From the IMG/VR virus record IMGVR_UViG_2778261416_000006, positions 1 to 36,558 of that record: DNA of 36,558 bases, one strand, 5' to 3'. The notes beneath the pieces were generated by a model that saw only the letters and a program-made list of their open reading frames with translations, ran no database searches and had not been told where the DNA came from. Source of the stretch: a virus (taxonomy: Duplodnaviria; Heunggongvirae; Uroviricota; Caudoviricetes). Made by a program: the position numbers and the translations under genes. Of the stretch, positions 274 to 36,558 are shown piece by piece (position 1 is the first letter of the stretch; each line of letters begins with the position of its first letter).

Positions 274-1112
274 CTGAAAGGCCCCTTCACGGTCAATGTG
301 TGGATCATTAGCATTGGCCCTGCGACTACTGATTTTAACATCTAGGGAAACGTAGCTGATGTTTGGCTTCGATAAGATTCTGTAGCACCGCCTCAGTGGG
401 GTTGTCAGAACATTCCGCTGCCGCCTTAAGAATATCGCTTACTAGAGATGAAACTGGTTGATTGTAATCCCGGTCGACCGTTACTCTATGTTTATCCGGA
501 TAATTTTGGCGTACACATTAAGTGAAGAAAACTTCAAAGTGATTTGAAACAGATGTTGTATTCACTGGCTCATTTACATTAACTTGAGTGTTGTTCAGCA
601 CATGTTGAAACGCAGCTGTAAGGAAGATGATACAGCCAAGATGTATCCTTCATTATGGGGATTGGCGCGATGACCACCACGGCTTAGCCCGATTGATTAT
701 TTGGAAATTGATTAGAATGCATAATCTGGGCTGAGCTCACTTAAAGTCTCTAATGTTTGACTTGGAGATTTGGGGGGCAGTGGCTTTCAGTTTTGTTAAC
801 TCTAACATCTGGTTTACGTTCCTTTTGGAACAAGAAGCAGAGGTCTGCTAAGTAATGGTTGTACTGCTTGTGATAGGTATGACTGCATGTTCAGCGAGCA
901 AGAATGGCTTAAAAGTTCTGTTACTGAGCACCCCATGAAGTTAGAACGATGTCATAACGTGCACGTAACCGTTGAACTGTTCTCTTACAGATAATCTCTA
1001 CATAGCTATTATTGCTTAGGCGGTAGCTATGTAGATGGTTTTTGTAATATTATATTAAAAGTTCATACAGCGACTATAGCATCATTGCGAAAAATATCAG
1101 GAGGTGAGTTTA

Positions 1113-2567: not shown

Positions 2568-2573
2568 TCTTAT

Positions 2574-4123: not shown

Positions 4124-4140
4124 TAACTATCTCCGGCTAT

Positions 4141-4170
4141 TAAGTAGGCCTTGTATTTTAGGCCTACTTA
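4141..4170. terminator. perfect 10-bp inverted repeat (taagtaggcc / ggcctactta) with 10-nt loop, putative operon terminator
   Basis: Read directly; lies 18 nt after the stop of the RelA/SpoT-like gene. No clean T-tract follows, so it could be a protein-binding palindrome instead. Confidence 0.35.
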
Positions 4171-5175
4171 AAAAGTTTCATTATGTGAAGTGATGATGAT
4201 AGCAAATCTGATATCTTTATGGTTGGATGCGAGAAAATATTTTTATCCCGACACAACAACTGGTAATGATAGAAAATTTAAACCCAAAAATGCTACAGTA
4301 GCCTCAGCTCACAAACGGAGTATAAAGTGGCGGTTACTCTTTAGTGGGAATACTGTAGATAGTTGATAAACTGGGCTGGATTTTCTTTTCTAACCGAAGG
4401 GAAGAAAAGCAAGGGGAACCCAAAGAAACAAGCGCAGCGGCTTCGTAGGGTTAGCCCTTGCTTCTTTTATAATTGGCATTATTCATTCAAGAACAATAGG
4501 ATCTTCGCTTGTACAAGCGAAGCTATAATAAAAAATCAATTAATTATTTTAAAAGTATTAAGCAAGAGCCTATTGACATTCGTAAAATAAAAGTTATTTT
4601 TAATGTATGCCATAAATAAAAAGTTTTATGTCATATGTATCCTGCACTATGTGCAGTTAATGTGCCACTTGTCCCATATATGGGAATATTGGAAAGGTTA
4701 CTTTGTTTTGAAGTAGCCTTTCGTCCTTCAATATTCACGATTACTTATTGCTATTACCAAGTCCAGTCGAATCGAAGAACATCTTTTATCTGAAACGACT
4801 CCTAATACCAGGTTGAAGCCACAATATCTCTCGCATAAGTAGACCAAAGAAAAATTATGATATTAACTATGTGATTTTTTTTAGTGTTAAGTTGAATAAT
4901 TATATACTGGAGAGTTTTCTGTACACTACCAATTGCTGGTTCATCTGTTCTGCCGCTGATGTTTCTGACTAATCTCCCGGTGACACAGAACTGTCCCTCT
5001 CTACCAGCCTTTATTCGACTCAATGTCCGGCTGCTGATACGCAGTTATCCCTTCGTATCAATGACTGACTCTTAAACGCAATGCTTTGGTTGCTGGCGTA
5101 TCTGACAGCTTCTTCGGCGTGAAGGTCGTTGTGTAAGTATACTTCTTGGTTTATTTAGGCTATATAAAACCATGA

Positions 5176-6072
5176 CTATGACTGGCTGTTTTCAGTAAGA
5201 GTCTTATCATCCAAAGAATTTATTCTAGAAATTCTTTTTAACTCATTAAGATAATCAACCTCGTTTTCTAAGAACCAATGAAGAACTTTAGAGTTGCCAA
5301 GTAATTTATTAATATATGACTGGATTATAACGAATTTCAACATATCTGAACCATACTCGGTTTGAAGTTTTTTCGTTTCTTCCGAAGTTGTTGCCATTTC
5401 TTGTTCCAGACGAAGTATGGTTTTTTTTATGTCCTTTTTATAGGGAGTGTTTTTCCCTTTATTTACTATCATCGATGACGGTGTTGCATCCAAGATGCTC
5501 ATTGCAAATTTTTTACTATAATTATCAAAATTAATCATTGTACCGACTGCTTCAATTTGACGAATTGGCTTCATTTTCCTCAAAACGTCAAATGTAGCCT
5601 TAGGTATAGGTTTATCAGAAAGTTTCGCAATTACACTTGGATCTATGCCGTTCATCACATTAGCTTTATCTTTTATGGCATCAACAGATATGCCCAAAGC
5701 AGCACTAAGTTTTTCAATTGATACTTTTGCCAGAGACTTAATTATCATTCTATGTTCTTCAACTACATTTATATGATTCACTTGTTTGTTAGGAGTGAAA
5801 GCATCATCTATGCTCGAAAGTATACATGGAGCTTTTTCTATATCTAAGTCTTTTAAAGCCTCAACCCTTAAATGGCCATCAAGTATCTTAGTGACATCTT
5901 TATCTTTGTCATAGAATACTATTATTGGTTCAATAATACCCAAGCTTTCGATAGAGGTAACTATTTGATGATATTTATGGCTTCGCTTTACGTTTTCTAA
6001 TAATTCCTTAGATGGAATTAACTTATTAGTTTCCAGGTAAATAAAATTTTTGCCAAAACGTATCTGAATCAT
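5176..6072 (-). CDS. ParB/sulfiredoxin-fold protein
   Basis: N-terminal ParB-like region with ILDGHLRVEAL (GxxRxxA-type box). ATG at 6072-6070; 4-nt overlap with upstream gene. AT-rich. Confidence 0.55.
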   Translation of the reverse strand: MIQIRFGKNFIYLETNKLIPSKELLENVKRSHKYHQIVTSIESLGIIEPIIVFYDKDKDVTKILDGHLRVEALKDLDIEKAPCILSSIDDAFTPNKQVNHINVVEEHRMIIKSLAKVSIEKLSAALGISVDAIKDKANVMNGIDPSVIAKLSDKPIPKATFDVLRKMKPIRQIEAVGTMINFDNYSKKFAMSILDATPSSMIVNKGKNTPYKKDIKKTILRLEQEMATTSEETKKLQTEYGSDMLKFVIIQSYINKLLGNSKVLHWFLENEVDYLNELKRISRINSLDDKTLTENSQS

Positions 6073-6965
6073 TTTGATACCTCTTTGTTTACTGGGTTTA
6101 ATATCTGAGATGGTAGTTCTGAAAGATTCTCTTGTTCAAGTATATTTTGAAAGCTTTTATTCATCATTATGATGTTAAAAATCTCATTTATTATTAGTAG
6201 ATTGGTTTTTATAAATTTCGAGTTGTTATAAACAGATTTATGTTCAGCGATACTATTTTCATAAAGCTCAATCAACTCCTCTGCAGTCATCCTTTTTGAT
6301 GGTTTGTGATAATAAAATCCGGCTGCTTTTGCACCTTTATTCCCAACTGTTCTTTGATTTAGAATGTATTTTATCTTTATAATGTCCCGACTTTTTATTA
6401 ATTTTTTATCATATGCTTCGGTAAGAATATCTTGTGCTTCCTCAGTTTCACATCTTGCAAATTGCACTGCGAGATACAGAGGCAAATTACCCCGTTCGAC
6501 TGCTGAGAGAAGTTTATGCTCTCCCTTATCAAGAAGCATATTAATACTGCTCACCCAGTTCGATGAATATCCAGTAATCTCACTTATTTCGGAGTCTGAA
6601 AGTCCTCTGATTTTCATGTCTTTAATCACCTGTAATAACTCATTAGAACGTGGTCTTCTCCTTGCAATGTTTTCAACTAAACTCATAACGTAAGCATCTT
6701 CTTCTGATACATCTCTTATAATTGCTGGAATAATAGTTTCACCTAATGCAACAAGAGCCTCTATTCTCCCTTGACCACAAATTAAAGCATATTTGAAATC
6801 GTCTTCATCAATAGCTCTTACGCTTATAGGCTTGCTTAATCCTCTTTTTTTTATGCTTTCCTTTATTTCTTCATGCACTACCTTATTTCTTGTTCGTGGG
6901 TTAAGAAATTTTATTTTTGCAATCTCAATTTGAATTATTGGGAATTCATTTTTTTCAGGCAGCAT
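6069..6965 (-). CDS. ParB-like protein with HTH
   Basis: ParB box-like CGQGRIEAL and LVENIARRRPR, followed by helix-turn-helix-like GLSDSEISEITGYSSNWVSSI. ATG at 6965-6963; overlaps recombinase gene end. Confidence 0.6.
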   Translation of the reverse strand: MLPEKNEFPIIQIEIAKIKFLNPRTRNKVVHEEIKESIKKRGLSKPISVRAIDEDDFKYALICGQGRIEALVALGETIIPAIIRDVSEEDAYVMSLVENIARRRPRSNELLQVIKDMKIRGLSDSEISEITGYSSNWVSSINMLLDKGEHKLLSAVERGNLPLYLAVQFARCETEEAQDILTEAYDKKLIKSRDIIKIKYILNQRTVGNKGAKAAGFYYHKPSKRMTAEELIELYENSIAEHKSVYNNSKFIKTNLLIINEIFNIIMMNKSFQNILEQENLSELPSQILNPVNKEVSK

Positions 6966-8511
6966 ATAGTTCCCTCACTTTCATGCGAGTAATAATTTGT
7001 AGAAATTTATCAAGATTATCAAATCTATAGAGATCTAACCGAATGTTGTTTGTTTCCATCATACACATTTTACTATATTCGTTTTCAATCTTTGGTATGA
7101 TATAAAAATCAAGAGGTGAAATATTTTGTGAATTCATTCGTATAACAATTGTTATGTCTGCTTTCTGTGAGTTATCAAACCGGACTTTCCATCTAAGTTT
7201 ACCTGATTTCATATGTATGCATTTAGTAACAAGGACGGAAATTAAAAACTCATCATTGATGTAAAGCATTGGGTAATATTTATACTCGTCTATATGACAG
7301 TTACTTTTTAATATTTCGCCCTTAAAATCCTCAATTATCTCTGAGTAAAATGATCTTAGTGCTTCATTTATTTGGAGATAGCTGTAATCATGTTCTGGCT
7401 TATAACCAATCAAAGTATATGCTCTTAAAAGACCACCAAATCGGGTTCTATAAACAGAAGATGAAGGGCCTGTATCATCTTCATCAATGATAAAGCCTGA
7501 TAGTTTTCCATTAGATTCTAATTTTTCTTTTAGCTTTTCTAATAGATCTTCATTAGTCAAATGAATGGATCGGAGCTGAATTATTTCTTGAGCTTTATTA
7601 TATTTTTTCTTTGAAATAATTGGTTTATATGCCTTGTCACATCTAATCCATTCATGTTTGGGGTTTTTTACAAGCTTACTTTTTAGTTTAGATGAGGTTT
7701 TGTTATATATGTTGTTTCCAATATATTTTTCATTTGTCAAAATTTGATGTATTTTTGCACGAGTCCATGATGTTCCATTTTCTGCAGGTATGCTCTGTTC
7801 ATTTAATCTCTCAGCAATAATGAATTCTGGGACGTTACTATCTATAAAGAGATCATAGATTCTATTTACAATTTTTATTTCATTTTTTGGTCCCGGAATT
7901 AATATTACCCTATCTGTTTGAATACTCTTTCTTTTGCGGAAATTCAATATTTCTTTAGCTATGCCATTTTCGTCTACTAAAAGACGTCTCAGCCCATAAC
8001 CAGCCATACCGCCTTGATGATAACCAAGCTTTATTAAATTTACTTGCCCTATAAATACCTTTTCAGATAGATTCCTGCTGTGATATGCAGCACTTGATCT
8101 TTTTATATTCAGTATAACAGAGGACTCTAAAGGGAAATCTTTAGTGGGTATAGGTTCGGAACAATATATAAGATCTACACCATTTCTTTCAAATAGAAAG
8201 GAATAATATGCAGCTTCATCACTATTTTGAAAACGACCAAAACGGCTCACATCATAAAATAATACAGCCTGTATATCTATTTTCTTTTGTTCTACATCGC
8301 TAAGTAACTGCTGCAAAGAATGCCTGCCTACGATACTGACTCCGCTCTTACCTGCATCATCGTAGGTATAAGCGATTTCCATATTGTTCTTTTCAGCATA
8401 ATCTTTGATATATTCAGACTGATTATGTAAAGAATATTGCTGATGGTCGGTAGACATCCTCAAGTACTGTGCGACCCTAACTCTATGATTTTTTTCATTT
8501 CCGCTAGCCAT
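6955..8511 (-). CDS. large serine recombinase
   Basis: N-terminal resolvase/invertase catalytic motifs: VAQYLRMSTDHQ (catalytic Ser), YDDAGKSG, LFYDVSRFGR. Length 518 aa fits the large serine recombinase class. Track start 8517 is TTG; ATG at 8511 is preceded by GAGG. Confidence 0.75.
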   Translation of the reverse strand: MASGNEKNHRVRVAQYLRMSTDHQQYSLHNQSEYIKDYAEKNNMEIAYTYDDAGKSGVSIVGRHSLQQLLSDVEQKKIDIQAVLFYDVSRFGRFQNSDEAAYYSFLFERNGVDLIYCSEPIPTKDFPLESSVILNIKRSSAAYHSRNLSEKVFIGQVNLIKLGYHQGGMAGYGLRRLLVDENGIAKEILNFRKRKSIQTDRVILIPGPKNEIKIVNRIYDLFIDSNVPEFIIAERLNEQSIPAENGTSWTRAKIHQILTNEKYIGNNIYNKTSSKLKSKLVKNPKHEWIRCDKAYKPIISKKKYNKAQEIIQLRSIHLTNEDLLEKLKEKLESNGKLSGFIIDEDDTGPSSSVYRTRFGGLLRAYTLIGYKPEHDYSYLQINEALRSFYSEIIEDFKGEILKSNCHIDEYKYYPMLYINDEFLISVLVTKCIHMKSGKLRWKVRFDNSQKADITIVIRMNSQNISPLDFYIIPKIENEYSKMCMMETNNIRLDLYRFDNLDKFLQIITRMKVRELYAA

Positions 8512-8793
8512 GCACAAAACCTCATGGATGATTCAATACAATGTAGAGGATAAAATTGATCAAATTTTAACCGAATTCAACTGTTTTATCATTGATTAGA
8601 GCGAATTTGGTAGTTCTTCGAGGTGTATGATAATCGAGAAGAGATGTGAATTATTTAGCTGATATGACCGACAGCTTTCGTTATGTGGCCTCAAGGTACC
8701 CATTTGTAAATGGCTATGCTTAGTCCACATAGGTTAATGGTGTGATCATTAATTCTTCAAATAAATCAAGATAGTTAACCCATCATGGAAGAG

Positions 8794-10023
8794 TTATGCG
8801 GCAATAACTTTGTATTTTTGAGACGAAACATAGTCACTCCACCATTGCATGAGAACCACACGTTCTGTGAGATACTCTGCACGATTGTAGGCTGCAATTA
8901 TTTCATCTTTTTTCGAGTGGGCAAGGGCGGCTTCTAAGACATCAGTTCTAAACTTGCCACACTCCTCAGCCGCCGTTCTAGCGATTGATCGCATACCATG
9001 AGCTACAAGCTCACCTCCGAAGCCCATACGGATTATAGCCGCATTAGCTGTTTGTTCATGCATGTGATTGAGTGGAGCTTTGATACTGGGAAAAACCCAC
9101 TCTCTATGCCCGCTGATGGCTTTCATTGAATCCAAGACTCGCAAAGATTCTTTGCTCAGTGGAACTTTGTGAGGCTTCTTCATTTTCATAAACTCCGCCG
9201 GGATGTTCCACATGCTGGTTTCTATATCAATATCTGACCATCTTGTGCGAACAGCTTCACCAGGGCGAACCCATGTGAGAAGTTGCCACTCAATCAGTAG
9301 CCTTGTTTCTAAACGGATAGAAGCATTGTTTAGAGCAACCAGGAAGCGGGGGAGTTCGGAAGGGGGTAATGCTGGCATATTCTGTTTTTTTGGCTTGCTG
9401 AACCGTTGCCCCAGGTTGTCAGCCGGATTGAATTCTATGAGTTCTTCTGTTGCTGCATAGCGGAAAATTTCATTCAGGCGGGATATGACGCGGCGAAGTG
9501 TTTCAAGGACACCTCGTTTTTCTATGGGGTCTAAATGCTGTTTAAGCATTTTAGGGCGAATCTCCTTAATGGGGGTATCACCCAACGTTGGAAAGATATT
9601 TCTCTCTAGGCTTCGCCAGATGTCGTTAGCATGATCCTGGGAGATGCCTGACGTTTTGACTTTCTCATCAAGCCACTTCTTGGCTACTGCTTGAAATGTA
9701 TGTTCCGTTGCATCCTTAAGGGCATTGGCTTTGTGGGTGTTATGAACTTGTGGGTCTATACCATTTGCAAGCAACGACAAGTACTCATCACGTAAAGCTC
9801 GTGCCTTCGCAAGTGTAAGGTGAGGATAGGTTCCTAAGCTCACCTTAGTTCGCTTTTTGGTCACAGGCACTGCATATCTGAAATACCAATTTTTCTTTCC
9901 TCCCTTCGCTAAGGGGGCGATTCGCAGGAGCAAACCATCGCCGTCAAAAAGGTTAACCTCTTTCTCGGCAGGTTTGGTGCTTTTGATTTCAGTGTCAGTG
10001 AGCTTCTTAGCGATTTTTGCCAT
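8794..10023 (-). CDS. P4-type tyrosine integrase (IntA/CP4-57-like)
   Basis: N-terminus MAKIAKKLTDTEIK and overall pattern resemble E. coli IntA as I recall it. C-terminal HGMRSIARTAA (HxxR) and AYNRAEYLTERVVLMQWW. Start placed at ATG 10023 rather than track start 10167. Confidence 0.8.
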   Translation of the reverse strand: MAKIAKKLTDTEIKSTKPAEKEVNLFDGDGLLLRIAPLAKGGKKNWYFRYAVPVTKKRTKVSLGTYPHLTLAKARALRDEYLSLLANGIDPQVHNTHKANALKDATEHTFQAVAKKWLDEKVKTSGISQDHANDIWRSLERNIFPTLGDTPIKEIRPKMLKQHLDPIEKRGVLETLRRVISRLNEIFRYAATEELIEFNPADNLGQRFSKPKKQNMPALPPSELPRFLVALNNASIRLETRLLIEWQLLTWVRPGEAVRTRWSDIDIETSMWNIPAEFMKMKKPHKVPLSKESLRVLDSMKAISGHREWVFPSIKAPLNHMHEQTANAAIIRMGFGGELVAHGMRSIARTAAEECGKFRTDVLEAALAHSKKDEIIAAYNRAEYLTERVVLMQWWSDYVSSQKYKVIAA

Positions 10024-10189
10024 GTTTGGGACCCTCATGTTTTGGACCCTTTGTGTTGGGTCCCAAAAAGGGTGCCATAACGAGTAGATTCTAGCAATTC
10101 TCGGTAGACTACTATAGACGTAAAAAAGCCCGCAAGGCTGGTTCCATGCGGGCTTGATAGACTTCACTGAACTTCAATATATCAAAAAT

Positions 10190-11324: not shown

Positions 11325-11894
11325 ATGAACCAGTGCACACAGTGGTTGGGGTATCATGGCACCAGTGTTTTATGTGCTAATTCAATCATTAATACAAATT
11401 TTAATGTCAGTAGACAAGAAAATGATTGGCTTGGTACCGGAGCCTATTTTTTCATTGAGTCGCCGGGATTGTTGGCCCCAGAAGAAAAAGCGGCTCAATG
11501 GGCTAACATTAGGGCTAGTAATGCGAGACCTAACTATACTAATCTAGCAGTGTTAGAAGCTACCATTGAAGTTGAGCAGTATCTTGACTTAGACAATGAT
11601 GAGCACATAGCCGCTCTCAACAAAGTGAGAGAGGTTTACATGGAAATCATGAAGTCTGAGGGTAAGAAACCAACTGGTAACAGATTGTTTGACAAATGCT
11701 GTTTTTGTAACTATGTAATGCATGAGCATGGTATTGACGCCCTGATACGTAAAGAGTATATCAAAACTACAAGAGAGGAGCTTGATTATGGTTTTGAAGG
11801 GGGAGTTCCTAACTGCAGAGTCTTATGCGTTAAAGACCCTAAAGCGAGTGTTAAGTCCATACGATTCGCGGTCGAGAGAAGGAGAGTACGATGA
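11325..11894 (+). CDS. putative ADP-ribosyltransferase-fold (H-Y-E class, PARP/DarT-like) toxin candidate
   Basis: YHGTSVLCANSIINTNF followed by WLGTGAYFF resembles the HG[ST]...GxGxYF signature of H-Y-E ADP-ribosyltransferases; assignment by eye only. AT-rich; stop overlaps next start (ATGA). Confidence 0.45.
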   Translation: MNQCTQWLGYHGTSVLCANSIINTNFNVSRQENDWLGTGAYFFIESPGLLAPEEKAAQWANIRASNARPNYTNLAVLEATIEVEQYLDLDNDEHIAALNKVREVYMEIMKSEGKKPTGNRLFDKCCFCNYVMHEHGIDALIRKEYIKTTREELDYGFEGGVPNCRVLCVKDPKASVKSIRFAVERRRVR

Positions 11895-12256
11895 ACATCA
11901 ATTTATGGCTCGAAAAGACCTTGGACTCTATAAGGTCAACTGATCCGAAAGCTCTCATGGTGAGGATGGAGCGGTATGGATTGATTGAAGATGATGTTAA
12001 TAAAAATAAGGAAATGTCTCATTCTGGTTATGAATATACAGTTTGTGAGGATCTTCCTAGAGAGGTTCCTTTTGCGTCCTATTTTTTCATTGATAACGCT
12101 TCGTATCATGAAGAATCTATAAATGCTTTATCCGTGCAGTTGACTTTCACAACAGCGCCGCGTGAAGCGGCGTTTTCATTGGCTTCACGTCCAGTGTTTT
12201 ATACATCAGAGATTGCTTGTGGAAATTCTCTGGATCATATTGCCCAGGCTGCTTAA
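11891..12256 (+). CDS. hypothetical protein, candidate antitoxin or adaptor
   Basis: ATG 11891 preceded by AAGGAG; coupled to flanking genes. No motif recognised. Confidence 0.45.
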   Translation: MNINLWLEKTLDSIRSTDPKALMVRMERYGLIEDDVNKNKEMSHSGYEYTVCEDLPREVPFASYFFIDNASYHEESINALSVQLTFTTAPREAAFSLASRPVFYTSEIACGNSLDHIAQAA

Positions 12257-12257
12257 T

Positions 12258-12644
12258 ATGAAATTTCAATTAAATAAGAATCAAATAGAAAAGTTAAGTA
12301 TTGAACATTTTATAAATGAATCATCTATTAAAAACAGTTTTTCATTTTCACATACATGCAAGTATGATGAAGAAAAGAATAATGAGTTTATCATTTCTTT
12401 TAAATTTGAACTTACATCTGACAATGGTTTTAAACTTATTTTTACGCATAATTTCTTTTTTGAATGCGATGAACCAATTACAGAAGAGTTTTTACAGTCA
12501 CATTACACATCAGTGAACGCTCCTGCTATTGCCTATCCTTATGTAAGAGCATTTGTGGCAACATTACTTTTAAACGCAGGCTTAGAGTCTGTTTTATTGC
12601 CTGCTGTTAATTTTGTTGAGCATGCTAAATCGCAAGATAAATGA
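12258..12644 (+). CDS. SecB-like chaperone
   Basis: C-terminal AIAYPYVRAFVATLLLNAGLESVLLPAVNF parallels SecB [30 protein letters not shown]. ATG sits 1 nt after upstream stop; the track ORF 12162-12644 is treated as an N-terminal over-extension. Confidence 0.6.
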   Translation: MKFQLNKNQIEKLSIEHFINESSIKNSFSFSHTCKYDEEKNNEFIISFKFELTSDNGFKLIFTHNFFFECDEPITEEFLQSHYTSVNAPAIAYPYVRAFVATLLLNAGLESVLLPAVNFVEHAKSQDK

Positions 12645-12649
12645 TTAAA

Positions 12650-12674
12650 ATGAGAGCAAATAAATTGCTCTCAT
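12650..12674. terminator. bidirectional hairpin terminator between convergent genes
   Basis: 9-bp stem atgagagca / tgctctcat with 7-nt loop, flanked by A-run upstream and T-rich downstream; overlaps integrase stop codon. Confidence 0.5.
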
Positions 12675-13840
12675 TTATACATGATATCATTTATGGTATT
12701 TTCGTTATCGTACTCTTTTAAATATCTTCCATAATGCCTAAATAGCATTTCTGGTCCTTTATGTCCCATTTGTCCAGCAAGCCAAAATAGGTTCGCCCCT
12801 TGACTGATATGGCGAGTAGCGAATGTGTGTCTCGTTTGATATGGATTACGGTATCTGATTCCTGCTTTTCTCAATATTGGCACCCATGCTTTTTTCCTAA
12901 TTGCATCAGCACTTGCCCAGGGTTTATTGGTCTTTGGATCTTCAAAGACAGTAGCATTCTTTATGAATGTAAATGGCTTCTGGTTTATCAACGCCAACAT
13001 TGCTTCTTCAGTCAGTTCAACTTTACGGGTACCGGCTTTTGTCTTTGTTCCTTTGATAACTCCGACAACACTTGCGCTCTGAACATGGGCTGTTTTTCCA
13101 ACAAAGTCGATATCATGCCATCGTAGGGCACATAATTCAGAACTACGCAGGCCTGTATGTATGGCGAACCGGAACAGATTTTCCCATTGTTTGTTTCCGG
13201 CTGCTGCTAGTAATGCATCAACTTCTGCTGGTGATAGCGGATCAACTAAGTAGCTGCTTTCTGCTTCTGACTTATCACTTTGGTAGCGCGAAGCTGTTAC
13301 TAACGATACGGGGTTAATTTGAAGTACCCCATCGGTCACGGCTTCATCAAGTGCTGACCGCAGGAAAGATAACTGGTTGCGAATGGTTTTTAAGGTCGTT
13401 TTCTGGCTTTGAATCCACGCTTTCAGGGTTGCTGGTGTTAATTCACTTGCAGGGCAAATGTGAAGTGAGGCTAACGCACTACGGCATTTTTTATAACCAC
13501 CGATCGTGGATGGTGAAAGTTTCCTCGTTTCGCAGATTTCAAGATATTCGTCTAGGTACATTTTTACCGTTTTGCCAGCGGCAGCATTACCAAAAATTTT
13601 CAAACGAGCAGAACGGGGAAAATATTCTGCATAAATGAATGTTCCCCTTTCGATCTTATTATGGATTTCGCCGAGTGTACGCTCGGCGTATTTAATGTTC
13701 TTTGGTGTTACTTCCAGATTGGAAAGCGGCTCACGACATCTAACTCCTTTGTAGGTGAAAGTTATATTGATCGTTTCTCCTTGGCGGTGTTTCCTGATTG
13801 TTACGCCGCGCGGTAGTTTGAGCAGTTTTGTCTGGCCCAT
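12671..13840 (-). CDS. lambda-type tyrosine integrase
   Basis: C-terminal catalytic region RHTFATRHISQG (HxxR) and MLFRHYGRYL (Tyr); N-terminal arm-binding-like region. ATG at 13840. Confidence 0.85.
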   Translation of the reverse strand: MGQTKLLKLPRGVTIRKHRQGETINITFTYKGVRCREPLSNLEVTPKNIKYAERTLGEIHNKIERGTFIYAEYFPRSARLKIFGNAAAGKTVKMYLDEYLEICETRKLSPSTIGGYKKCRSALASLHICPASELTPATLKAWIQSQKTTLKTIRNQLSFLRSALDEAVTDGVLQINPVSLVTASRYQSDKSEAESSYLVDPLSPAEVDALLAAAGNKQWENLFRFAIHTGLRSSELCALRWHDIDFVGKTAHVQSASVVGVIKGTKTKAGTRKVELTEEAMLALINQKPFTFIKNATVFEDPKTNKPWASADAIRKKAWVPILRKAGIRYRNPYQTRHTFATRHISQGANLFWLAGQMGHKGPEMLFRHYGRYLKEYDNENTINDIMYK

Positions 13841-25311: not shown

Positions 25312-25638
25312 ATGCCTCATAACCCAAATACCTGGCTGGAGTTGCTCCAGAGCTGGTGGCGTGGAGACACACCGCTGGGCGCAGTGATTATGTCGATCGT
25401 TATGGCTGGTTTGCGCATCGCCTATTTTGGCGGTGGTGGTGGCTGGAAGCGAAAAACGCTCGAGATTTTGCTATGTGGCGCTCTGACGCTGACCTTTGCA
25501 TCCGCTCTTGAGTATGTCGGATGGCCTAAATCGCTTTCTGTTGCCATTGGTGGTGGCGTGGGGCTGATCGGTGTCGATGCTATTCGTGGGGCTGCAATGC
25601 GAGTAATCGGTAACAAATTTGGTAGCTCGAAGGAGTAA
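25312..25638 (+). CDS. holin (lambda S-like)
   Basis: 108 aa with hydrophobic segments and Gly-rich stretch, directly upstream of the endolysin; resembles lambda S. Confidence 0.65.
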   Translation: MPHNPNTWLELLQSWWRGDTPLGAVIMSIVMAGLRIAYFGGGGGWKRKTLEILLCGALTLTFASALEYVGWPKSLSVAIGGGVGLIGVDAIRGAAMRVIGNKFGSSKE

Positions 25639-25641
25639 TTT

Positions 25642-26118
25642 ATGCAGGCACTAAATTCCCAGCGTAAAGCTTTCCTGGATATGGTGGCATGGTCAGAAGG
25701 AACGGATAACGGGCGACAGCCGACACGTAACCACGGTTATGATGTTATTGTTGGTGGCGAACTGTTCACTGATTACTCCGATCACCCTCGCAAACTTGTC
25801 ACGCTAAACCCCAAACTCAAATCAACAGCTGCCGGACGTTACCAGCTTCTTTCACGCTGGTGGGATGCTTACCGTAAACAGCTTGGCCTGAAAGATTTTT
25901 CTCCAGAAAGCCAGGACGCTGTAGCTCTGCAGCAGATTAAAGAGCGTGGTGCTTTACCGATGATTGACCGCGGCAGTATTCGTCAGGCAATCGACCGTTG
26001 CAGCAATATCTGGGCGTCGTTACCTGGTGCAGGTTACGGTCAGTATGAACATAAAATCGGTGACCTGATTGCCCGATTTAAAAAAGCTGGTGGGGTAGTA
26101 AATGAAGCTGAGATATAA
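25642..26118 (+). CDS. R: endolysin, lambda R-type lytic transglycosylase
   Basis: Near-identity over long stretches with lambda R as recalled (NSQRKAFLDM..AWSEGTDNGRQ.TRNHGYDVIVGGELFTDYSDHPRKLVTLNPKLKST.AGRYQLLSRWWDAYRKQLGLKDFSP); AGGAG 6 nt upstream. Confidence 0.9.
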   Translation: MQALNSQRKAFLDMVAWSEGTDNGRQPTRNHGYDVIVGGELFTDYSDHPRKLVTLNPKLKSTAAGRYQLLSRWWDAYRKQLGLKDFSPESQDAVALQQIKERGALPMIDRGSIRQAIDRCSNIWASLPGAGYGQYEHKIGDLIARFKKAGGVVNEAEI

Positions 26119-26620
26119 GCTGGTTATTGTTGCCTTCGTTGTTAGCGTCATTGGTTCCTTCATCTGGTCTGCTGGGCATTACTACAGCAAATATCAGCAC
26201 GAAAAGGAGCGTGCTGATGAGGCTGTACGAAATGCTGAATCAGCAACTGCCATTACCCGTAACGTTCTGCAATCACTGCAAATCATCAATACAGTTATAG
26301 AGGCTAACCAGCATGCAAAACAGCAGATCGCACTGGAGTCACAGAGAACCCAGGAAGATATCAAAGTGGCTGTTGCGGATGATGATTGTGCTTCACGTCA
26401 TGTGCCTGCTGCCGCTGCTGACCGGTTGCGGAAGTACGCGAACAGTTTACGTACCGATTCCGGCGGTAATCAAGTAGGGTTATTGAGTGGTAAAGTTTGT
26501 GCTGAATGTAGGAGAGAATATGAAGAAAATGTTTATATTGTTGTTGGCTGCAGGACTGCCATTAAACTCCTTTGCGAAGCCAGTAACGGAAAAGCAGCTT
26601 GCTACATACTTTATAGATAA
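26102..26620 (+). CDS. Rz-like i-spanin with foreign C-terminus, probably disrupted
   Basis: N-terminal transmembrane segment and Rz-like body up to about codon 122; from about 26468 the frame runs into AT-rich DNA encoding unrelated Cys-rich sequence. Confidence 0.45.
   Translation: MKLRYKLVIVAFVVSVIGSFIWSAGHYYSKYQHEKERADEAVRNAESATAITRNVLQSLQIINTVIEANQHAKQQIALESQRTQEDIKVAVADDDCASRHVPAAAADRLRKYANSLRTDSGGNQVGLLSGKVCAECRREYEENVYIVVGCRTAIKLLCEASNGKAACYILYR
26382..26477 (+). pseudogene. Rz1-like o-spanin remnant (lipoprotein signal then premature stop)
   Basis: Embedded +1-frame ORF MIVLHVMCLLPLLTGCGSTRTVYVPIPAVIK with lipobox LTGC but only 16 residues after the Cys, ending at the AT-rich junction. 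Confidence 0.4.
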
Positions 26621-27008
26621 CGTTAAAACTTCAGCAGATAAGAATATAGATCTAGATGTAGGGGGAATAAATAGACTGTCTGTAATATGCCCAGCAAAGT
26701 CGGCAAGTGGAACTCTTTTAATAAAAAAAGCATCCTACGAGTTTAATAAAGGCATTGGTGTTTTTGATTTTGAAAATAACTCACAATCTGCACCATTGGC
26801 TTTTATTGTACCAATTAGTGAGGATGAAAATAACTTTGACTCGGAAATTATTGGTTTCTCTTTTGCATTTAAAATGCCAAGAGGGCAATTCTTTGTTGAT
26901 GTTACGAAATCAGGGAAGGTAAAGGCTGGCGTAAATATTAGTGGTGAAAGCGGAATTACTTATTCATCATGTAGAATAGATACTCATAATGTTGATTATG
27001 ATCTTTAA
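26520..27008 (+). CDS. secreted protein with Sec signal peptide (cargo gene)
   Basis: MKKMFILLLAAGLPLNSFA signal-like N-terminus; AGGAGAG upstream of ATG 26520; AT-rich; own terminator downstream. Confidence 0.55.
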   Translation: MKKMFILLLAAGLPLNSFAKPVTEKQLATYFIDNVKTSADKNIDLDVGGINRLSVICPAKSASGTLLIKKASYEFNKGIGVFDFENNSQSAPLAFIVPISEDENNFDSEIIGFSFAFKMPRGQFFVDVTKSGKVKAGVNISGESGITYSSCRIDTHNVDYDL

Positions 27009-30487: not shown

Positions 30488-31532
30488 ATTTCAGCGCCCG
30501 ACGCTGGCAGAAAATATCAGTATGCTCCGTAACGATTTATTCGCCAGGCTGGACGTCAGCGACACGCTCCGGCGCATGGATGAAGACGTGCGGGCAAAGG
30601 TGTATGCGGCGGCGCTGCATACGGTTTACGGGTACATCGATTATCTGGCAATGAACATGCTGCCTGACCTGTGCGATGAGTTCTGGCTGGCGCGACATGC
30701 TGCGATGAAACGGTGTCCGCGCAAGGGGGCCACGGCTGCCAGCGGGTATATGCGCTGGGAAGGTGTCAGCGATGGCCTGAAGGTGACTGCCGGGAGCGTG
30801 ATTCAGCGCGATGACCTGGTTCAGTACACGGCAACTGCCGATGCAACCAGCTCCGGTGGTGTCCTGCGCGTGCCGATCGCCTGCTCAAGTGCAGGCGCGG
30901 TCGGTAACGCTGACGACGGTACGTCATTAATCCTGGTCACGCCGGTGAATGGTCTGCCGTCTTCCGGTGTGGCTGACACCCTGACAGGCGGATTTGATAC
31001 TGAAGAGCTGGAAACGTGGCGCGCCCGCGTCATTGAGCGGTATTACTGGACGCCGCAGGGCGGGGCTGACGGGGACTATGTCGTCTGGGCTAAAGAAGTG
31101 CCCGGCATTACCCGCGCATGGACATACCGACACTGGATGGGAACGGGGACTGTCGGTGTGATGATTGCCAGCAGTGACCTGATTAATCCCATTCCGGAAG
31201 AGTCAACGGAAACGGCGGCAAGACAACATATCGGGCCACTGGCCCCGGTGGCAGGCTCTGATTTGTATGTATTCAGGCCGGTGGCGCATAAAGTGGATTT
31301 TCATATCCGCGTGACGCCGGACACACCGGAAATACGGGCTGCCATCACCGCCGAGTTGCGTTCGTTCCTGCTGCGTGATGGTTATCCGCAGGGAGAACTG
31401 AAGGTGTCACGTATCAGTGAAGCGATTTCCGGTGCGAACGGGGAATACAGCCATCAGTTGCTTGCCCCGGCGGACAATATCTCCATTGCAAAAAATGAGC
31501 TGGCAGTTCTGGGGACGATTTCATGGACGTGA
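30474..31532 (+). CDS. baseplate J-like protein (JayE-like)
   Basis: Synteny with e14 jayE and size (352 aa). Confidence 0.65.
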
Positions 31533-32107
31533 CAAACGATGATTATATCCGTCTGTTGTCGGCACTGTTGCCGCCCGGTCCGGCGTGGTCAGTCAGCGAT
31601 CCGGCGATTGCCGGTGCGGCACCGTCATTAACCCGCGTTCATCAGCGTGCGGATGCCCTGATGCGGGAGCTGGATCCGCGCACCACCACTGAACTGATAA
31701 ACCGCTGGGAGCGTCTGTGCGGTCTGCCGGATGAATGTATTCCGGCAGGGACACAGACCCTTCGCCAGCGTCAGCAACGGCTGGATGCGAAGGTTAATCT
31801 GGCGGGCGGCATCAATGAGGATTTTTACCTTGCACAGCTTGCTGCCCTGGGCAGACCAGACGCCACTATCACGCGATACGATAAAAGCACGTTCACCAGC
31901 TCATCGGCCTGTACTGACGCGGTGAATGCGCCGGAATGGCGGTATTACTGGCAGGTCAACATGCCAGCCGCCACCAACACCACCTGGATGACATGTGGCG
32001 ATCCCTGTGATTCCGCACTTCGTATCTGGGGCGACACCGTTGTCGAGTGCGTGCTTAACAAACTCTGCCCTTCGCATACCTACGTAATTTTTAAATATCC
32101 GGAGTAA
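31523..32107 (+). CDS. Mu gp48-like tail protein (YmfQ-like)
   Basis: Position immediately before the tail-fibre gene, as ymfQ in e14. Confidence 0.55.
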
Positions 32108-32110: not shown

Positions 32111-32695
32111 ATGCATCGTATAGACACGAAAACCGCGCAGAAGGATAAGTTCGGCGCGGGTAAGAACGGTTTTACCCGTGGTAACCCCCAGACCGGCACA
32201 CCTGCCACCGATCTGGATGATGACTACTTTGACATGTTGCAGGAAGAACTTTGCAGCGTGGTGGAGGCCTCCGGTGCCAGCCTGGAGAAAGGGCAGCATG
32301 ATCAGCTGCTTACCGCACTTCGTGCGCTGCTGTTAAGCCGCAAGAATCCGTTTGGCGATATCAAATCGGATGGCACGGTGAAAACGGCTCTCGAAAACCT
32401 TGGTTTGGGAGAAGGTGCTAACTGGGTTATGTTACCTGGAGGAATGATAATTCAGCGTGTTTATCTTGGATTTCCTGTCGGCACCAATGTAAGACACATA
32501 ACTTTCCCCCGGTCGTTTACAACAACGAACTATTCCATCTCAATTAACTGGAATGATATCGGTACTGTAACAACTGAAACACAATCGCCAGCAAATGTGG
32601 CGGTTGTTCATCAAACAAAATCATTAACAGGGGCCAGCATCTGGCAGGCAGGTCCCGGGGGATTTAATGTGGACATTATAGCGGTGGGGTATTGA
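32111..32695 (+). CDS. side tail fibre protein, constant N-terminus plus invertible C-terminal segment
   Basis: N-terminus [60 protein letters not shown] matches e14-type tail fibres as recalled; crossover site inside the gene. Confidence 0.75.
32388..32413. repeat. left crossover site of the invertible tail-fibre segment
   Basis: 26-mer ctctcgaaaaccttggtttgggagaa is the inverted repeat (20 of 26 identical, 14-bp perfect core) of the site at 34224-34249. Confidence 0.5.
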
Positions 32696-32696
32696 T

Positions 32697-33125
32697 ATGT
32701 ACGTATGGAGCGCTAAAGCAAATGGCTTTTTCCCCATATCGGAGAAAGAAAAATTTGAGGCATCAGGTCTGTGGCCTGATGATGGTGTAATAGTCAGTGA
32801 GGAAGAACATAAAAAGTTATTTACGGATATTCCACCAGGAAAACAGATTGGAACACTGAATGGAAAACCAGCACTGATAGATATTCCTCAGCCGACCAAA
32901 AAGGAATTAATAGCTATTGCTGAAGTTAAAAAATCCCAATTACGGGAAAAAGCTGACAGTGAAATATCCTGGCGTCAGGATGCTGTTGATGCTGATATCG
33001 CAACTGATGAAGAAACTTCAACTCTCACCGAATGGAAGAAATACCGTGTGCTGCTGATGCGTGTTGATACTTCAACAGCACCCGATATTGAATGGCCTAC
33101 GCCTCCGGCAGTTCAGGCCAGATGA
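32697..33125 (+). CDS. tail fibre assembly protein
   Basis: C-terminal [25 protein letters not shown] is typical of tail fibre assembly proteins. Confidence 0.65.
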
Positions 33126-33702
33126 CATCCGGCGTGGTGCTGGTATCTGTTACCGTCACCGCGTCAATGTAATCCAGCACGGCGTTAAGTCGGGTTGTTT
33201 CTGCCTGCGTCAGCTTCCGCCCGGCCTGTAATTTCAGTTGAATCAGACTGATGGAAGCCATTGCAGCATCAATCAGCGACTGGCGCTGTGCTTCTGCCGC
33301 GTCTACTGCGGCACTATGCTGTGCCTCAGTATCTGTCACCCATTTCTCACCATCCCATTTATCGTATGGCGTTAACGGGACGATAGTGGTTGTATTTTCA
33401 GGGTAATCACCCGGAGCTGTGATTTCTTTTGATTCTCCCGTTTCGGTGTTATAGACAACTTCACCGCGATGGTCTGGCACATATTCCCATGAGTTAAAAT
33501 CTGCAGAACGGCAGATTGCATAACCAGCCTTATGTGTGCCAGGAGTATCTAAACAGGAATATGCAGGGATACCGACACCCACAGCAAGATATTCAGTTGA
33601 TGCAGAAATATACTCCCGTGTCTCACTGTCATAGTTATAAACGGTAATCTCTCCTGCCTTTGTGGCAATAAATTTATTATTTAAGATGGCGTTATACATC
33701 AT
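33097..33702 (-). CDS. alternative tail fibre assembly protein (inverted orientation)
   Basis: C-terminal [28 protein letters not shown] has the same signature; convergent with the + strand copy. Confidence 0.6.
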
Positions 33703-34277
33703 GCAGCCCTCACAATGTAATTAAATGAAATATTACGTGGGCGTGTCTCTGCTGCACCGACAATACTGGTACTCAACCCCGTTGCCGTTCGTTTGTTATT
33801 TTTATTTCCTTCAATCAGACAGTTGTAATCATCATTACCAATTAACGAATTGGTGGCATCAATACTGTCCGGGGACAAGGCATTAGTTGTGGAACTTAAA
33901 GTCAGCATCTCGTCTGAACTTGGAAGATTTTTTAATGGTGTTTCATTGCGTGAAATACCCGCGTAAAAAAAGGACTCATGCCTGTGAGCTTCAAAAGAGT
34001 CATTCTGAAGACTTAGCAAGGCTCGCCCCGCATCCACTCCACGTCCATCATCCCAGCCACGAATAAATTCACCGCGTAAATCAGGCAATTTATTGGTCGG
34101 GTAAGCCTTTGCCAGTTCCGGGTATTCTTCAGCAGAAAAAGCCGCACCATTGCATTTCAGCCAGCCTGTTGGCGGAGTGGCTGAAGGCCACGGAACAGGC
34201 ACCCCAACCGGTAATGCAGAGCCTTCTCCCAAACCAACGTTTATGAAAATGTAGAAATAACGAGCAAATGGCATCAT
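33699..34277 (-). CDS. alternative tail fibre C-terminal segment (expressed only after inversion)
   Basis: Begins at the GLGEG crossover junction, contains a tail-collar-like region (LPDLRGEFIRGWDDGRGVDAGR ... NISFNYIVRA), and has no promoter-proximal constant part of its own. Confidence 0.55.
   Translation of the reverse strand: MMPFARYFYIFINVGLGEGSALPVGVPVPWPSATPPTGWLKCNGAAFSAEEYPELAKAYPTNKLPDLRGEFIRGWDDGRGVDAGRALLSLQNDSFEAHRHESFFYAGISRNETPLKNLPSSDEMLTLSSTTNALSPDSIDATNSLIGNDDYNCLIEGNKNNKRTATGLSTSIVGAAETRPRNISFNYIVRAA
34224..34249. repeat. right crossover site of the invertible segment, adjacent to pin
   Basis: ttctcccaaaccaacgtttatgaaaa; resembles hix/gix/cix sites (TTCTTGAAAACCAAGGTTTTTGATAA) at 20 of 26 positions. 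Confidence 0.5.
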
Positions 34278-34303
34278 TCCTGCTTTTGTCAGGGAGATCT
34301 ACC

Positions 34304-34666
34304 ATGCTTATTGGCTATGTACGTGTGTCAACAAATGACCAGAACACAGATCTACAACGTAATGCGCTGAACTGTGCAGGATGCGAGCTGATTTTTGAAG
34401 ACAAGATAAGCGGTACAAAGTCCGAAAGGCCGGGACTGAAAAAACTGCTCAGGACATTATCGGCAGGTGATACGCTGGTGGTCTGGAAACTGGATCGACT
34501 GAGGCGCAGTATGCGGCATCTTGTCGTGCTGGTGGAGGAACTGCGCGAAAGAGGCATCAACTTTTGCAATCTGACGGATTCAATTGATACACAGTATCTT
34601 GTTAACACCAACACATGGCTGCAGGAGGGATATTATCGGTACCCGATTTCAGGATACAGCGCCTGA
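34304..34666 (+). pseudogene. pin: truncated DNA invertase (Pin/Hin/Gin family)
   Basis: MLIGYVRVSTNDQNTDLQRNALN ... VVWKLDRLRRSMRHLVVLVEELRERGINF matches the catalytic domain of Pin; similarity ends near residue 96 (about 34592) and the C-terminal HTH is absent. GGGAGA upstream of ATG. Confidence 0.7.
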
Positions 34667-34725
34667 TTAGACTAAAGAGGGGCTATATTGTAGAGTTTGC
34701 TAAAGTTTTTTATAGGGTTAAGCAA

Positions 34726-35796
34726 ATGACAGTCAGGAACTACACTAATTTAAATTTAGATCGGACAACTATTGAGGCTACGTCTAGGGCATTTATTGAA
34801 AATAAAAACTATTCCGTCCATTCAATTGGACCAATGCCTGGTGCAAGAGCAGGACTTCGGGTTGTGTTTGCTAAACCAGGAGAAGCTTTGGCAACTGTTA
34901 ACATTTTCTATAATAACGGAGGGACGTCTACAGTCCAGTATCAAACAGGAGCTAATCATAATCTTGGAAAAGAGTTGGCTGATGATCTCTATGAAACCAT
35001 CAATCCTGCAGAATTTGAACAGGTAAATATGGTGTTACAAGGGTTCGTTGAAGCGAACGTTTTATCTGTACTTCAGCTCTCAGCAGAGCAGCCACATATA
35101 CAATTTTACGAATACTTACGGAACACTCATACAACGGTGTGGAAAATTCATTCGCCAGAATTTCAGGATGAGTTGACAGTTAGTCTGCATCACAGAAATG
35201 GAACACTACAAATACAAGGGCGTCCATTGTCATGTTATAGAGTGTTTATATTCAACTTGTCAGAGCTACTCGATTTACAAGGACTGGAAAAAGTTCTCAT
35301 TCGTCAGGATGATGGCAAAGCGTATATAGTTCAGAAAGAAGTTGCTCGCTCACATCTAGAGTGTGAAATGGGGGATGCGTACCCACTATTGCATAAGAAT
35401 GTTGAAAAATTGCTCGTTTCTGGGCTGTGTGTTAAACTCGCCGCCCCCGATTTACCCGATTACTGTATGTTGTTGTATCCTGAATTACGTTCAATTGAGG
35501 GAGTACTTAAATCAACAATGTACCGATATGGCATGCCAATCACGCAGGATGGTTTCGGGCCTTATTTTGATAAAATTGGGAGTGAATTTATTCTGAAACA
35601 ACAATTTGGATGCAATTTATCGTCAGCTAAGGTTAAGACCATTAATGATGCCTATACTTTCTTTAACAGAGAACGTCATGGCCTGTTTCATATGGAGATA
35701 GTTGTCGACACAAGCCGTATGGTTTCTGACATGGCACGACTGATGACTAAGGCCAGACAGGCATGGGGAATTATTAAGGATTTGTATATTGTTTGA
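34726..35796 (+). CDS. rnlA: RnlA-like toxin (endoribonuclease of the RnlA-RnlB system)
   Basis: 357 aa from ATG 34726; N-terminus MTVRNYTNLNLD and internal segments such as EKLLVSGLCVKLAAPDLPDYCMLLYPELR and WGIIKDLYIV match E. coli RnlA as recalled. AT-rich. Confidence 0.65.
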   Translation: MTVRNYTNLNLDRTTIEATSRAFIENKNYSVHSIGPMPGARAGLRVVFAKPGEALATVNIFYNNGGTSTVQYQTGANHNLGKELADDLYETINPAEFEQVNMVLQGFVEANVLSVLQLSAEQPHIQFYEYLRNTHTTVWKIHSPEFQDELTVSLHHRNGTLQIQGRPLSCYRVFIFNLSELLDLQGLEKVLIRQDDGKAYIVQKEVARSHLECEMGDAYPLLHKNVEKLLVSGLCVKLAAPDLPDYCMLLYPELRSIEGVLKSTMYRYGMPITQDGFGPYFDKIGSEFILKQQFGCNLSSAKVKTINDAYTFFNRERHGLFHMEIVVDTSRMVSDMARLMTKARQAWGIIKDLYIV

Positions 35797-36151
35797 AATA
35801 ACAGGTGTTAACGTCTCAGGGGCTCTCATTGCCGTCGTTATGGCGACTGGCTACGAGAACCCCTTGACTTCAGTTCACGAAATCGAGAAGAGGCTTTCTG
35901 TTATACTGGGCAATTCACAGGCTACAGGTGAGGTTTTGTTTGACCTTTTGTGTTCTAATGGTCCAGAGTGGAATCGCTTTGTTTCGCTGGAAATAAGGTG
36001 TGGCAGTATTTTGCTGGATACTGCCAAAATTGTGGATGAGCAAGAAATTCCAGCGCAGATCTTGAGACATCAGAGAGATGTATTACGTAACCACCCTGAG
36101 TACGTAGAAGACTCTGTGTTAACACCAGATGATGTTCTTTGTATTCTCTAG
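35789..36151 (+). CDS. rnlB: RnlB-like antitoxin
   Basis: FEITGVNVSGAL ... LFDLLCSNGPEWNRF ... LRNHPEY resembles RnlB as recalled; start appears to be TTG overlapping the rnlA stop. Confidence 0.6.
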   Translation: MFEITGVNVSGALIAVVMATGYENPLTSVHEIEKRLSVILGNSQATGEVLFDLLCSNGPEWNRFVSLEIRCGSILLDTAKIVDEQEIPAQILRHQRDVLRNHPEYVEDSVLTPDDVLCIL

Positions 36152-36288: not shown

Positions 36289-36558
36289 TTACAAACCAAT
36301 AATCTGGAATAGCGCGGTTGCTGCTGCAGACAATGCTGCAAATGAATTGTACTTAGATTGAAGCCGCGCAGTGGCGAAGAAATCATGGAGATTCACGTTA
36401 AGTTCGGGATCTTCATACGTAACCATGACAATTTTTTTGCCTAACTCAACTTTTGCTGTAGCAGATTTAATCCATAAAATTGCAGATAAGACGCCAAAAG
36501 TTAATGACATCACATGATGATCTTTAATCCAACACATCACAAAAAGTAGATTTTCCAT
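36289..36558 (-). CDS. hypothetical protein, possibly N-terminally truncated by the window edge
   Basis: ORF runs to the last base of the window (cat at 36556-36558); no motif recognised. Confidence 0.25.
   Translation of the reverse strand: MENLLFVMCWIKDHHVMSLTFGVLSAILWIKSATAKVELGKKIVMVTYEDPELNVNLHDFFATARLQSKYNSFAALSAAATALFQIIGL

Follow-up and report, generated by a model that had tools for sequence, protein, structure and literature searches.

A stretch of DNA of 36,558 nucleotides, filed among the Caudoviricetes as IMG/VR virus record IMGVR_UViG_2778261416_000006 (positions 1 to 36,558; the whole of it is called the window here), is Escherichia coli DNA and carries near its right-hand end a tail-fibre segment framed by inverted crossover sites, of the kind known as the P segment in the e14 element of E. 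coli K-12. The invertase gene beside this segment, termed pin', keeps its 5' half and is followed by a cassette encoding the toxin RnlA and the antitoxin RnlB. Here we describe the parts of this locus, report that copies of the same truncated allele occur beside identical segments in both orientations, and weigh the explanations for a segment that is found flipped next to a broken enzyme gene.

Organization of the fibre segment and its truncated invertase gene

The features of the locus are given below by position in the window, with open reading frames (ORFs) measured in amino acids (aa).

32111-32695, plus strand: fibre ORF, 194 aa, with a Gp53-like_C C-terminus
32111-32415, plus strand: constant 5' part of the fibre gene, ~101 codons, ending ...ENLGLGEG, outside or at the edge of the invertible segment
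32388-32413, minus strand: left crossover site pixL, TTCTCCCAAACC-AA-GGTTTTCGAGAG
32416-32695, plus strand: fibre C-terminus A, Gp53-like_C (Pfam PF21882, E = 2.7e-5)
32697-33125, plus strand: tail-fibre assembly gene for C-terminus A, 142 aa, TfaP-like (Pfam Caudo_TAP, E = 1e-33)
33097-33702, minus strand: tail-fibre assembly gene for C-terminus B, 201 aa, TfaE-like (Pfam Caudo_TAP, E = 1.4e-30)
33699-34277, minus strand: StfE-like ORF, 192 aa, carrying fibre C-terminus B (Pfam Collar, E = 1.6e-15)
34224-34249, plus strand: right crossover site pixR, TTCTCCCAAACC-AA-CGTTTATGAAAA
34304-34666, plus strand: pin' ORF, 120 aa, from ATG at 34304 to a stop ending at 34666
34304-34591, plus strand: pin' codons 1-96, serine-recombinase catalytic domain only (BLASTP, 93/96 to K-12 PinE)
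34320-34440, no strand assigned: putative Fis-dependent recombinational enhancer, ~85-200 bp from the centre of pixR
34592-34666, plus strand: unrelated 24-codon tail and stop of the pin' ORF, with the breakpoint at 34592-34596
34726-35796, plus strand: rnlA, 356 aa, RNase LS-type toxin (four Pfam RnlA domains; 72% to K-12 RnlA)
35789-36151, plus strand: rnlB antitoxin, 120 aa (Pfam RnlB_antitoxin, E = 3.5e-24; 69% to K-12 RnlB)
36289-36558, minus strand: conserved hypothetical gene, 89 aa, always found after rnlB

The 16-mer that forms the inverted repeat of e14, TTGGTTTGGGAGAAGG, has exactly two copies in the 36.5-kb window, one at 32400-32415 (plus) and one at 34222-34237 (minus); the chance expectation is nil (0 of 100 shuffles), and the inverted repeat extends to 21 nt at 95% identity. 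The crossover sites at these positions are 26 bp long, imperfectly palindromic and mutually inverted, with a common inner half-site and AA core and differing outer halves, and pixR is identical to the right 26-bp site of K-12 e14. No third site was found in the window with up to two mismatches allowed. Between their outer ends (32388-34249) the two sites span 1862 bp.

This span holds two alternative fibre C-termini, each with its cognate assembly gene, and the constant N-terminus lies outside it. The ON state in the window joins the constant part to C-terminus A, giving the 194-aa fibre. The silent C-terminus B, of Collar type with a further weak match to the receptor-binding domain of the T4 short tail fibre, is carried by the StfE-like ORF, whose 13-codon leader starts at an ATG (34277) outside the segment and runs through pixR into the C-terminus; the arrangement is that of K-12 stfE (PMC12529663), and the adjoining assembly gene is called tfaE in the annotation of relatives. 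Inversion in silico at the core leaves both frames open; the fibre, now ending in C-terminus B, becomes 275 aa long, and the leader-fused ORF 111 aa. Among natural relatives the constant N-terminus is joined to either C-terminus. Genes of exactly the two predicted sizes are called in inverted relatives, the 275-aa fibre in four loci (L009, L027, L036 and L038).

The gene to the right of the segment, pin', matches residues 1-96 of the 184-aa PinE at 97% identity and then continues through 24 unrelated residues. Its Pfam Resolvase match covers positions 2-106 of 145, and among structures in the PDB it aligns with Gin over residues 1-97 only (E = 1e-46) and also with the catalytic domains of resolvases. 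The retained codons differ from pinE by 13 synonymous and three nonsynonymous changes (G67R, R88C and S89N); G67R sits in the conserved DRLGRS motif, and Ser9, Arg7, Asp64, Arg65 and Arg68 are kept. PinE residues 97-184 left no trace in any frame of the window (tblastn; nothing better than E = 5), which indicates that the 3' half of the gene was deleted or replaced and that the break is not a matter of frameshift or annotation; a second half hidden by frameshift or relocated within the window is ruled out by the same search. HTH_7 gave no match, and no small serine invertase of the usual constitution (catalytic domain, helix E and helix-turn-helix (HTH) domain, ~184-193 aa) adjoins the segment. 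The hinge just past the pin' break is where helix E starts, a helix that provides the interfaces of both dimer and tetramer and is required for strand exchange (PMC4513852), and everything from that hinge onward is missing from the Pin' product. Because helix E and the HTH domain are gone, Pin' cannot act as an invertase, and the product is dead in that capacity. Only one further serine recombinase is encoded in the window (6955-8517, minus strand). It belongs to the large serine recombinases, has 520 aa with Resolvase and Recombinase domains, is not of Din type and was rejected as the invertase; look-up of a longer, 132-aa version of the pin' ORF gave no record.

To the right of the break, matches to full-length pinE genes of complete E. 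coli genomes all end at window positions 34594-34596, and homology to the rnlAB region of K-12 runs from 34679 to 36135. For the intervening 84 nt (34595-34678) no source was identified, and no insertion sequence end or repeat that would explain the arrival of the cassette was seen there. The N-terminal, N-repeat, DBD and HEPN domains of RnlA and the RnlB_antitoxin domain score above their cut-offs and the two genes overlap, as expected of a type II toxin-antitoxin pair. The rnlA-rnlB cassette replaced the 3' half of pin, with loss of codons 97-184. Our literature search turned up no account of a pin stub joined to rnlAB, and genome annotations label such stubs as incomplete recombinases.

A preliminary description of the locus, prepared from its letters and ORFs, had placed inverted 26-bp sites around a 1.86-kb segment with two alternative fibre C-termini and two assembly genes, and had likened it to the Mu G, P1 C and e14 P segments; the repeat count and span, the Gp53-like_C, Collar and two Caudo_TAP domains, and the e14 P character of both sites and gene set bear this out. 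It had also held that pin keeps its catalytic N-terminus and loses everything after about residue 96, including the HTH. The alignments to PinE and Gin that it proposed as a check end where it predicted, and the full-length pin that re-annotation might have disclosed was sought in all frames and not found, so that its expectation of no inversion in cis from the local gene holds insofar as Pin' cannot supply an invertase. The rnlAB cassette as replacement of the 3' half was not mentioned in that description.

Orientation of the segment beside two truncated pin alleles

Relatives were gathered by look-up of the exact 120-aa Pin' and exact RnlA products in public assemblies (L037 and L039 proved to be the same records as L008 and L011, respectively). 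Orientation was sorted with exact junction patterns of 61-62 nt, which split the loci cleanly into two states, and segment identities were computed from stored alignments. Three loci (L008, L011 and L012) have the orientation of the window, with no mismatch to it across the 1806 nt of the segment. The opposite orientation is found in a metagenome contig, L009, where the reverse-complemented segment likewise shows 0 mismatches over 1806 nt and the left flank 0 over 2916 nt. Its junctions, from constant N-terminus to Collar on one side and from reverse-complemented Gp53-like to the outer half of pixR on the other, are exactly those that crossover at pix predicts. Two inverted loci come from isolate assemblies, L036 (GCA_025880685.1) and L038 (GCA_030510605.1), in which the inverted junction recurs together with an identical spacer, pin' and rnlA junction. 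Two further short-read contigs, L040 and L041 (2665 nt), begin exactly at the equivalent of window position 34222, the inner edge of the repeat, and L041 has two similar places; a start at this edge would be expected of a branch in the assembly graph, with both orientations present in the reads. Inversion is seen at the population level only, as identical segments in both orientations beside an identical pin'. The locus in L038 has no gp48 or baseplate-J genes called upstream of the fibre (1-1413), and its 89-aa gene is followed by another integrase-bearing element instead of ssrA-smpB (5493-7471); the prophage there is more eroded, and the switch therefore persists even in such a remnant. Variant segments, ~90% identical and with insertions and deletions, adjoin the same pin' in L007, L013 and L014.

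The junction itself is old. In a collection of 5426 complete E. coli genomes, to which all the genome counts below refer, the same pin'/rnlA junction is present in 72, and the substitutions G67R, R88C and S89N recur in L001 and L003; the common junction and common substitutions argue for a single, old truncation. Most of the 72 retain only a 197-bp, doubly truncated pin fragment that directly follows a lambdoid stf-tfa pair, with no invertible segment, and the left-hand neighbourhood of the truncation has, on these comparisons, evidently been reshuffled since. Five junction genomes keep pixR and pin(1-96); the one looked at, L001 (5CRE51), lacks the left site. There, within a lambdoid prophage (3922-8368), pixR, pin(1-96) and rnlAB lie beside one inverted C-terminus with its tfa. 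The annotation gives the main fibre gene as missing its C-terminal part, and the arrangement has the look of a half-switch that is truly dead. When metagenomes were scanned for the exact pin'/rnlA junction, three loci came back, none with an exact pixR and hence none informative on orientation.

A second truncation of the same gene is found at the e14 site in icd, where many E. coli have nearly the same segment (9 differences over 1806 nt relative to the window). The stub there is cut at about pin codon 45 and followed by a convergent gene for GmrSD (DUF262), a type IV restriction enzyme, as in E. coli O18, MEI148-20EC and CP115173. The complete genome CP115173 (L034) and locus L027 have identical stubs and segments with 0 of 1806 nt differing, in opposite orientations, and each orientation is represented by at least six complete genomes at 98-100% query coverage. 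Orientation of this allele was counted from rows at that coverage only, and the counts at 80% coverage (404 and 76 genomes) are unusable as allele-specific orientation frequencies, since a full-length pin could also pass 80%. Both truncated alleles keep pixR and the 5' pin stub, and both are polymorphic for orientation, so that flips at zero divergence are found after two independent truncations of the invertase. The possibility that the window is a recombinant within 5' pin, raised by a 98% match to MEI148-20EC that ends at 34428, was discarded, that strain having the shorter pin truncation with GmrSD.

Probable source of the invertase and competing explanations

Inversion by the Din family requires two sites, a cis-acting enhancer bound by Fis, and the enzyme. 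Beyond the two sites, the window keeps the first ~135 nt of pin' (34304-34440), which differ from K-12 pinE at three positions. The Hin enhancer measures 65 bp and lies ~100 bp from hix (PMC3798978), and that of Mu is placed inside the gin gene by the title of Kahmann et al. 1985, as cited in PMC3378877; on this analogy the retained 5' pin DNA would presumably function as the enhancer. The enzyme can come from elsewhere. PinQ of Qin and PinR of Rac have been shown by experiment to act in trans on the e14 P segment and invert it; the Mu G and Salmonella H segments are substrates of PinE, and the Salmonella H (Hin) segment is one of Fin from Fels-2 (PMC12529663). In K-12, deletion of pinE locks the P segment even with pinQ present (PMC12529663), which, in our reading and not that of the authors, fits a cis element within the deleted coding DNA. 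Of the complete E. coli genomes, 2751/5426 have a gene of pinR/pinQ type with at least 80% coverage and 2353/5426 a pinE-type 5' match, which makes the presence of a co-resident invertase the likelier case.

In our explanation the locus is an e14 P-type tail-fibre switch of the Din-family, Fis-dependent kind, at the end of a defective prophage next to ssrA. Recombination between the inverted pix sites would join the 101-codon constant N-terminus to one C-terminus, offering a choice between the Gp53-like end with the 142-aa Tfa and the Collar-type end with the 201-aa Tfa, and would leave the unselected C-terminus on the 13-codon leader as an StfE-type ORF. Both pix sites and the 5' pin DNA, with its putative enhancer, have stayed intact after loss of the enzyme, and Din-family invertases of co-resident prophages, presumably of the PinE, PinQ or PinR types, would flip the segment in trans. 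Given the identical copies that exist elsewhere in both orientations, and the published cases of inversion in trans, the invertases of other prophages are the most likely agents, and we regard the explanation as a whole, an e14-type switch bereft of its enzyme, with its cis parts intact and flipped in trans, as probably correct.

Several points weigh against this explanation. The Pin enhancer is positioned by homology and from the literature, and its place and function here are predictions. The source host may lack a trans-acting invertase, in which case the segment would be locked there. The exact right-hand combination of the window was found in no complete E. coli genome of the collection. 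L009 is a metagenome contig assembled with MEGAHIT and may contain a chimeric join, a weakness confined to that one example and absent from the isolate contigs L036 and L038 and from the complete genomes of the GmrSD allele. Finally, where the variant segments of L007, L013 and L014 differ in orientation, homologous recombination may have brought them in, and no flip need have occurred.

The principal alternative is that the switch is frozen, the invertase having been lost and the segment locked with the Gp53-like end ON and decaying, so that other orientations were either fixed before the truncation or imported afterwards. A frozen switch is what the preliminary description had considered likely, and the loss of helix E and HTH from Pin', the G67R change in DRLGRS and the lock imposed on the K-12 P segment by deletion of pinE (PMC12529663) all speak for it. 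Some relatives are true dead ends, whether through absence of the left site, as in L001, or through reduction to the 197-bp pin fragment, as in most junction genomes. Against it, the junction is single and old, yet both orientations show 0 substitutions over 1806 nt and flanks; contigs break exactly at the repeat edge, and the second truncated allele is polymorphic in the same way. Both alternative frames and both tfa genes are intact, and the K-12 deletion removed the enhancer DNA that the window keeps. Taken as an account of the allele in general, the frozen switch is contradicted by the data, since independent public assemblies have the same truncated pin' beside segments of 100% identity that lie either way round, and we consider it unlikely; for the source host alone, if it has no Din invertase, it may hold.

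Homologous recombination dependent on RecA, acting without a site-specific recombinase through exchange between the inverted repeats or through import of a segment by double crossover, appears very improbable. In its favour, fibre and tfa modules are highly mosaic, as the variant segments of L007, L013 and L014 beside the same pin' illustrate, and the same tfa pair recurs in a P2-like prophage (L033). Against it, repeats of 16-21 bp are usually too short, or at best just long enough, for RecA to exchange them efficiently, yet flips have occurred repeatedly at zero divergence in two alleles; import would require a donor with a 100%-identical segment, and the junctions coincide precisely with the core region of pix. 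That the two orientations are artefacts of assembly is scarcely credible: L009 is metagenomic and short-read assemblers may mis-join at repeats, yet the 21-nt repeat is much shorter than assembler k-mers, the inverted state recurs in the independent isolates L036 and L038 and in several complete genomes for the GmrSD allele, and precise reciprocal junctions on both sides would not be expected of an artefact.

Host prophage, exchanged cargo and known systems

The leftmost 24 kb of the window is ~97% identical to E. coli chromosomes in a mosaic pattern, and from ~12.7 kb rightwards the window is prophage. Beyond the fibre locus its main features are as follows.

12671-13840, minus strand: tyrosine integrase of the prophage
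25312-26620 (block to 27065): lysis cassette (holin, 158-aa ORF, DUF2570), adjoining the baseplate module
Ahead of the fibre gene: Mu-type baseplate module with DNA_circ_N, gp44/GpP, gp45, gp46, Baseplate_J and gp48 (ymfQ)
31523-32107: Mu gp48-like gene (ymfQ), immediately before the fibre gene

Regulatory and replication genes follow the integrase and lead through the lysis cassette to the baseplate genes. No terminase, portal, capsid, sheath, tube or tape-measure gene was found in the window. The close relatives L007 and L009 still have a tape-measure gene (633-635 aa) upstream of the same baseplate module, and the absence of genes that relatives partly keep marks the window prophage as defective. 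ORFs 26102-26620 and 26487-27008 overlap by 134 nt, probably at the deletion joint where the head, sheath, tube and tape-measure genes were lost. ARAGORN detected no tRNA or transfer-messenger RNA in the window; in relatives, ssrA, followed by smpB, lies ~300 nt past its right end. Since the prophage is without head, sheath, tube and tape-measure genes, flipping may, on the doubtful reading of the pin stub set out below, serve the host, for example through receptor masking of the StfE2 type shown for K-12 e14, and not the host range of a virion.

Left of the prophage, a block of low G+C content (0.29-0.35) at 1104-4123 contains three ORFs, encoding a 487-aa product with NA-iREase2 (NACHT-associated inactive restriction endonuclease), a 214-aa product with a weak pentapeptide match and a 301-aa RelA/SpoT-like product; a NACHT protein and a RelA/SpoT protein are annotated at the equivalent position in ETEC1716, and the block looks like a defence-type module. 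Two ParB/RepB-like genes, the 520-aa large serine recombinase and a 457-aa tyrosine integrase (5176-10167, minus strand) make up a module for integration and partition that belongs to a separate island. At 11325-12644, immediately beyond the prophage integrase, two ORFs with no Pfam match precede an ORF for a SecB-like chaperone, possibly a toxin-antitoxin-chaperone set. The otherwise collinear ETEC1716 has DarT and a NADAR antitoxin in place of these ORFs, which identifies 11325-12644 as a second position of cargo exchange.

The DNA immediately distal to pin encodes McrA (in K-12 and L030), GmrSD, RnlAB, two ORFs of no assigned function (L028) or DinI with an integrase (L026), and on account of this variation among relatives the prophage end behaves as an exchange point for defence cargo. 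The exchange consumed the 3' half of pin in two cases, those of GmrSD and RnlAB. In the K-12 island CP4-57 (L035, 12920-14762), yfjM, annotated as a GmrSD-domain fragment, lies directly upstream of rnlA; this ssrA island of K-12 thus has side by side the two cargos by which pin is truncated in separate prophages. One might propose that anti-phage cargo has landed repeatedly at the distal end of pin and that the stub survives, perhaps by selection for its enhancer, as the cis-regulatory element of an enzyme-less switch driven in trans, and we advance this with considerable doubt; stubs persist where there is no switch at all, which argues for neutral persistence.

A pseudogenised invertase beside an invertible segment should not be taken as a dead switch, and the label of incomplete recombinase in annotations would lead readers to assume a locked fibre, with which the comparative data disagree. 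Should control in trans prove general, phase variation of fibres or receptor masking in cryptic prophages would be tied to the invertase repertoire of the whole genome, and gain or loss of one prophage could start variation in another or bring it to a halt. A further point documented by the locus is that the 3' end of the invertase gene is a place of exchange for defence cassettes (RnlAB, GmrSD, McrA) at prophage ends.

The switch is of the known e14 P-segment kind, and what is new is a variant without an enzyme of its own. It agrees with e14 P/PinE in the 16-bp repeat, the right 26-bp site, the fibre/Tfa gene set, the leader MMPFA.YF.IFINVGLGEG, the upstream ymfQ (gp48) and baseplate J genes and the first 96 codons of pin, at 97% (PMC12529663). 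It differs in that K-12 has a full-length PinE of 184 aa followed by mcrA, at icd, whereas in the window pin' ends at codon 96 and is followed by rnlAB and ssrA; the Gp53-like receptor-binding allele of K-12 is also not that of the window. Action of PinQ and PinR on e14 P, and of Fin on H, resembles what we propose here in drawing the invertase from elsewhere in the genome (PMC12529663), but in those cases the local PinE or Hin is intact and contributes, whereas the window would depend wholly on supply in trans. The Mu G/Gin, P1 C/Cin and Salmonella H/Hin systems are built on the Din-family plan as well, with 26-bp inverted sites, a small serine invertase gene beside the segment and a Fis-bound enhancer inside or near the 5' end of that gene, an element that is putative in the window. 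Unlike pin', their invertases are complete; the Mu and P1 segments have longer fibre parts and belong to functional phages, and inversion of H switches a promoter and not a fibre.

A P2-like prophage (L033, CP148570, 3152-6092; gpU, gpI, gpJ context) carries the same pair of Tfa proteins, of 142 and 200 aa, with a 529-aa fibre, a 115-aa headless C-terminus ORF and no invertase gene called beside them, and looks like another enzyme-less arrangement of the cassette. The pin(~1-45)-GmrSD allele has nearly the same segment, keeps pixR and the 5' stub, has a defence gene in place of the rest of pin and occurs in both orientations; it differs in the position of the break (about codon 45 as against 96), in its cargo (convergent GmrSD as against rnlAB) and in its chromosomal site. 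The RnlA-RnlB pair of K-12 CP4-57 matches that of the window in its four-domain RnlA, overlapping RnlB gene and ssrA-associated island, and differs in sequence (72% and 69% identity), in having the yfjM GmrSD fragment and no pin stub upstream, and in its opposite orientation to ssrA.

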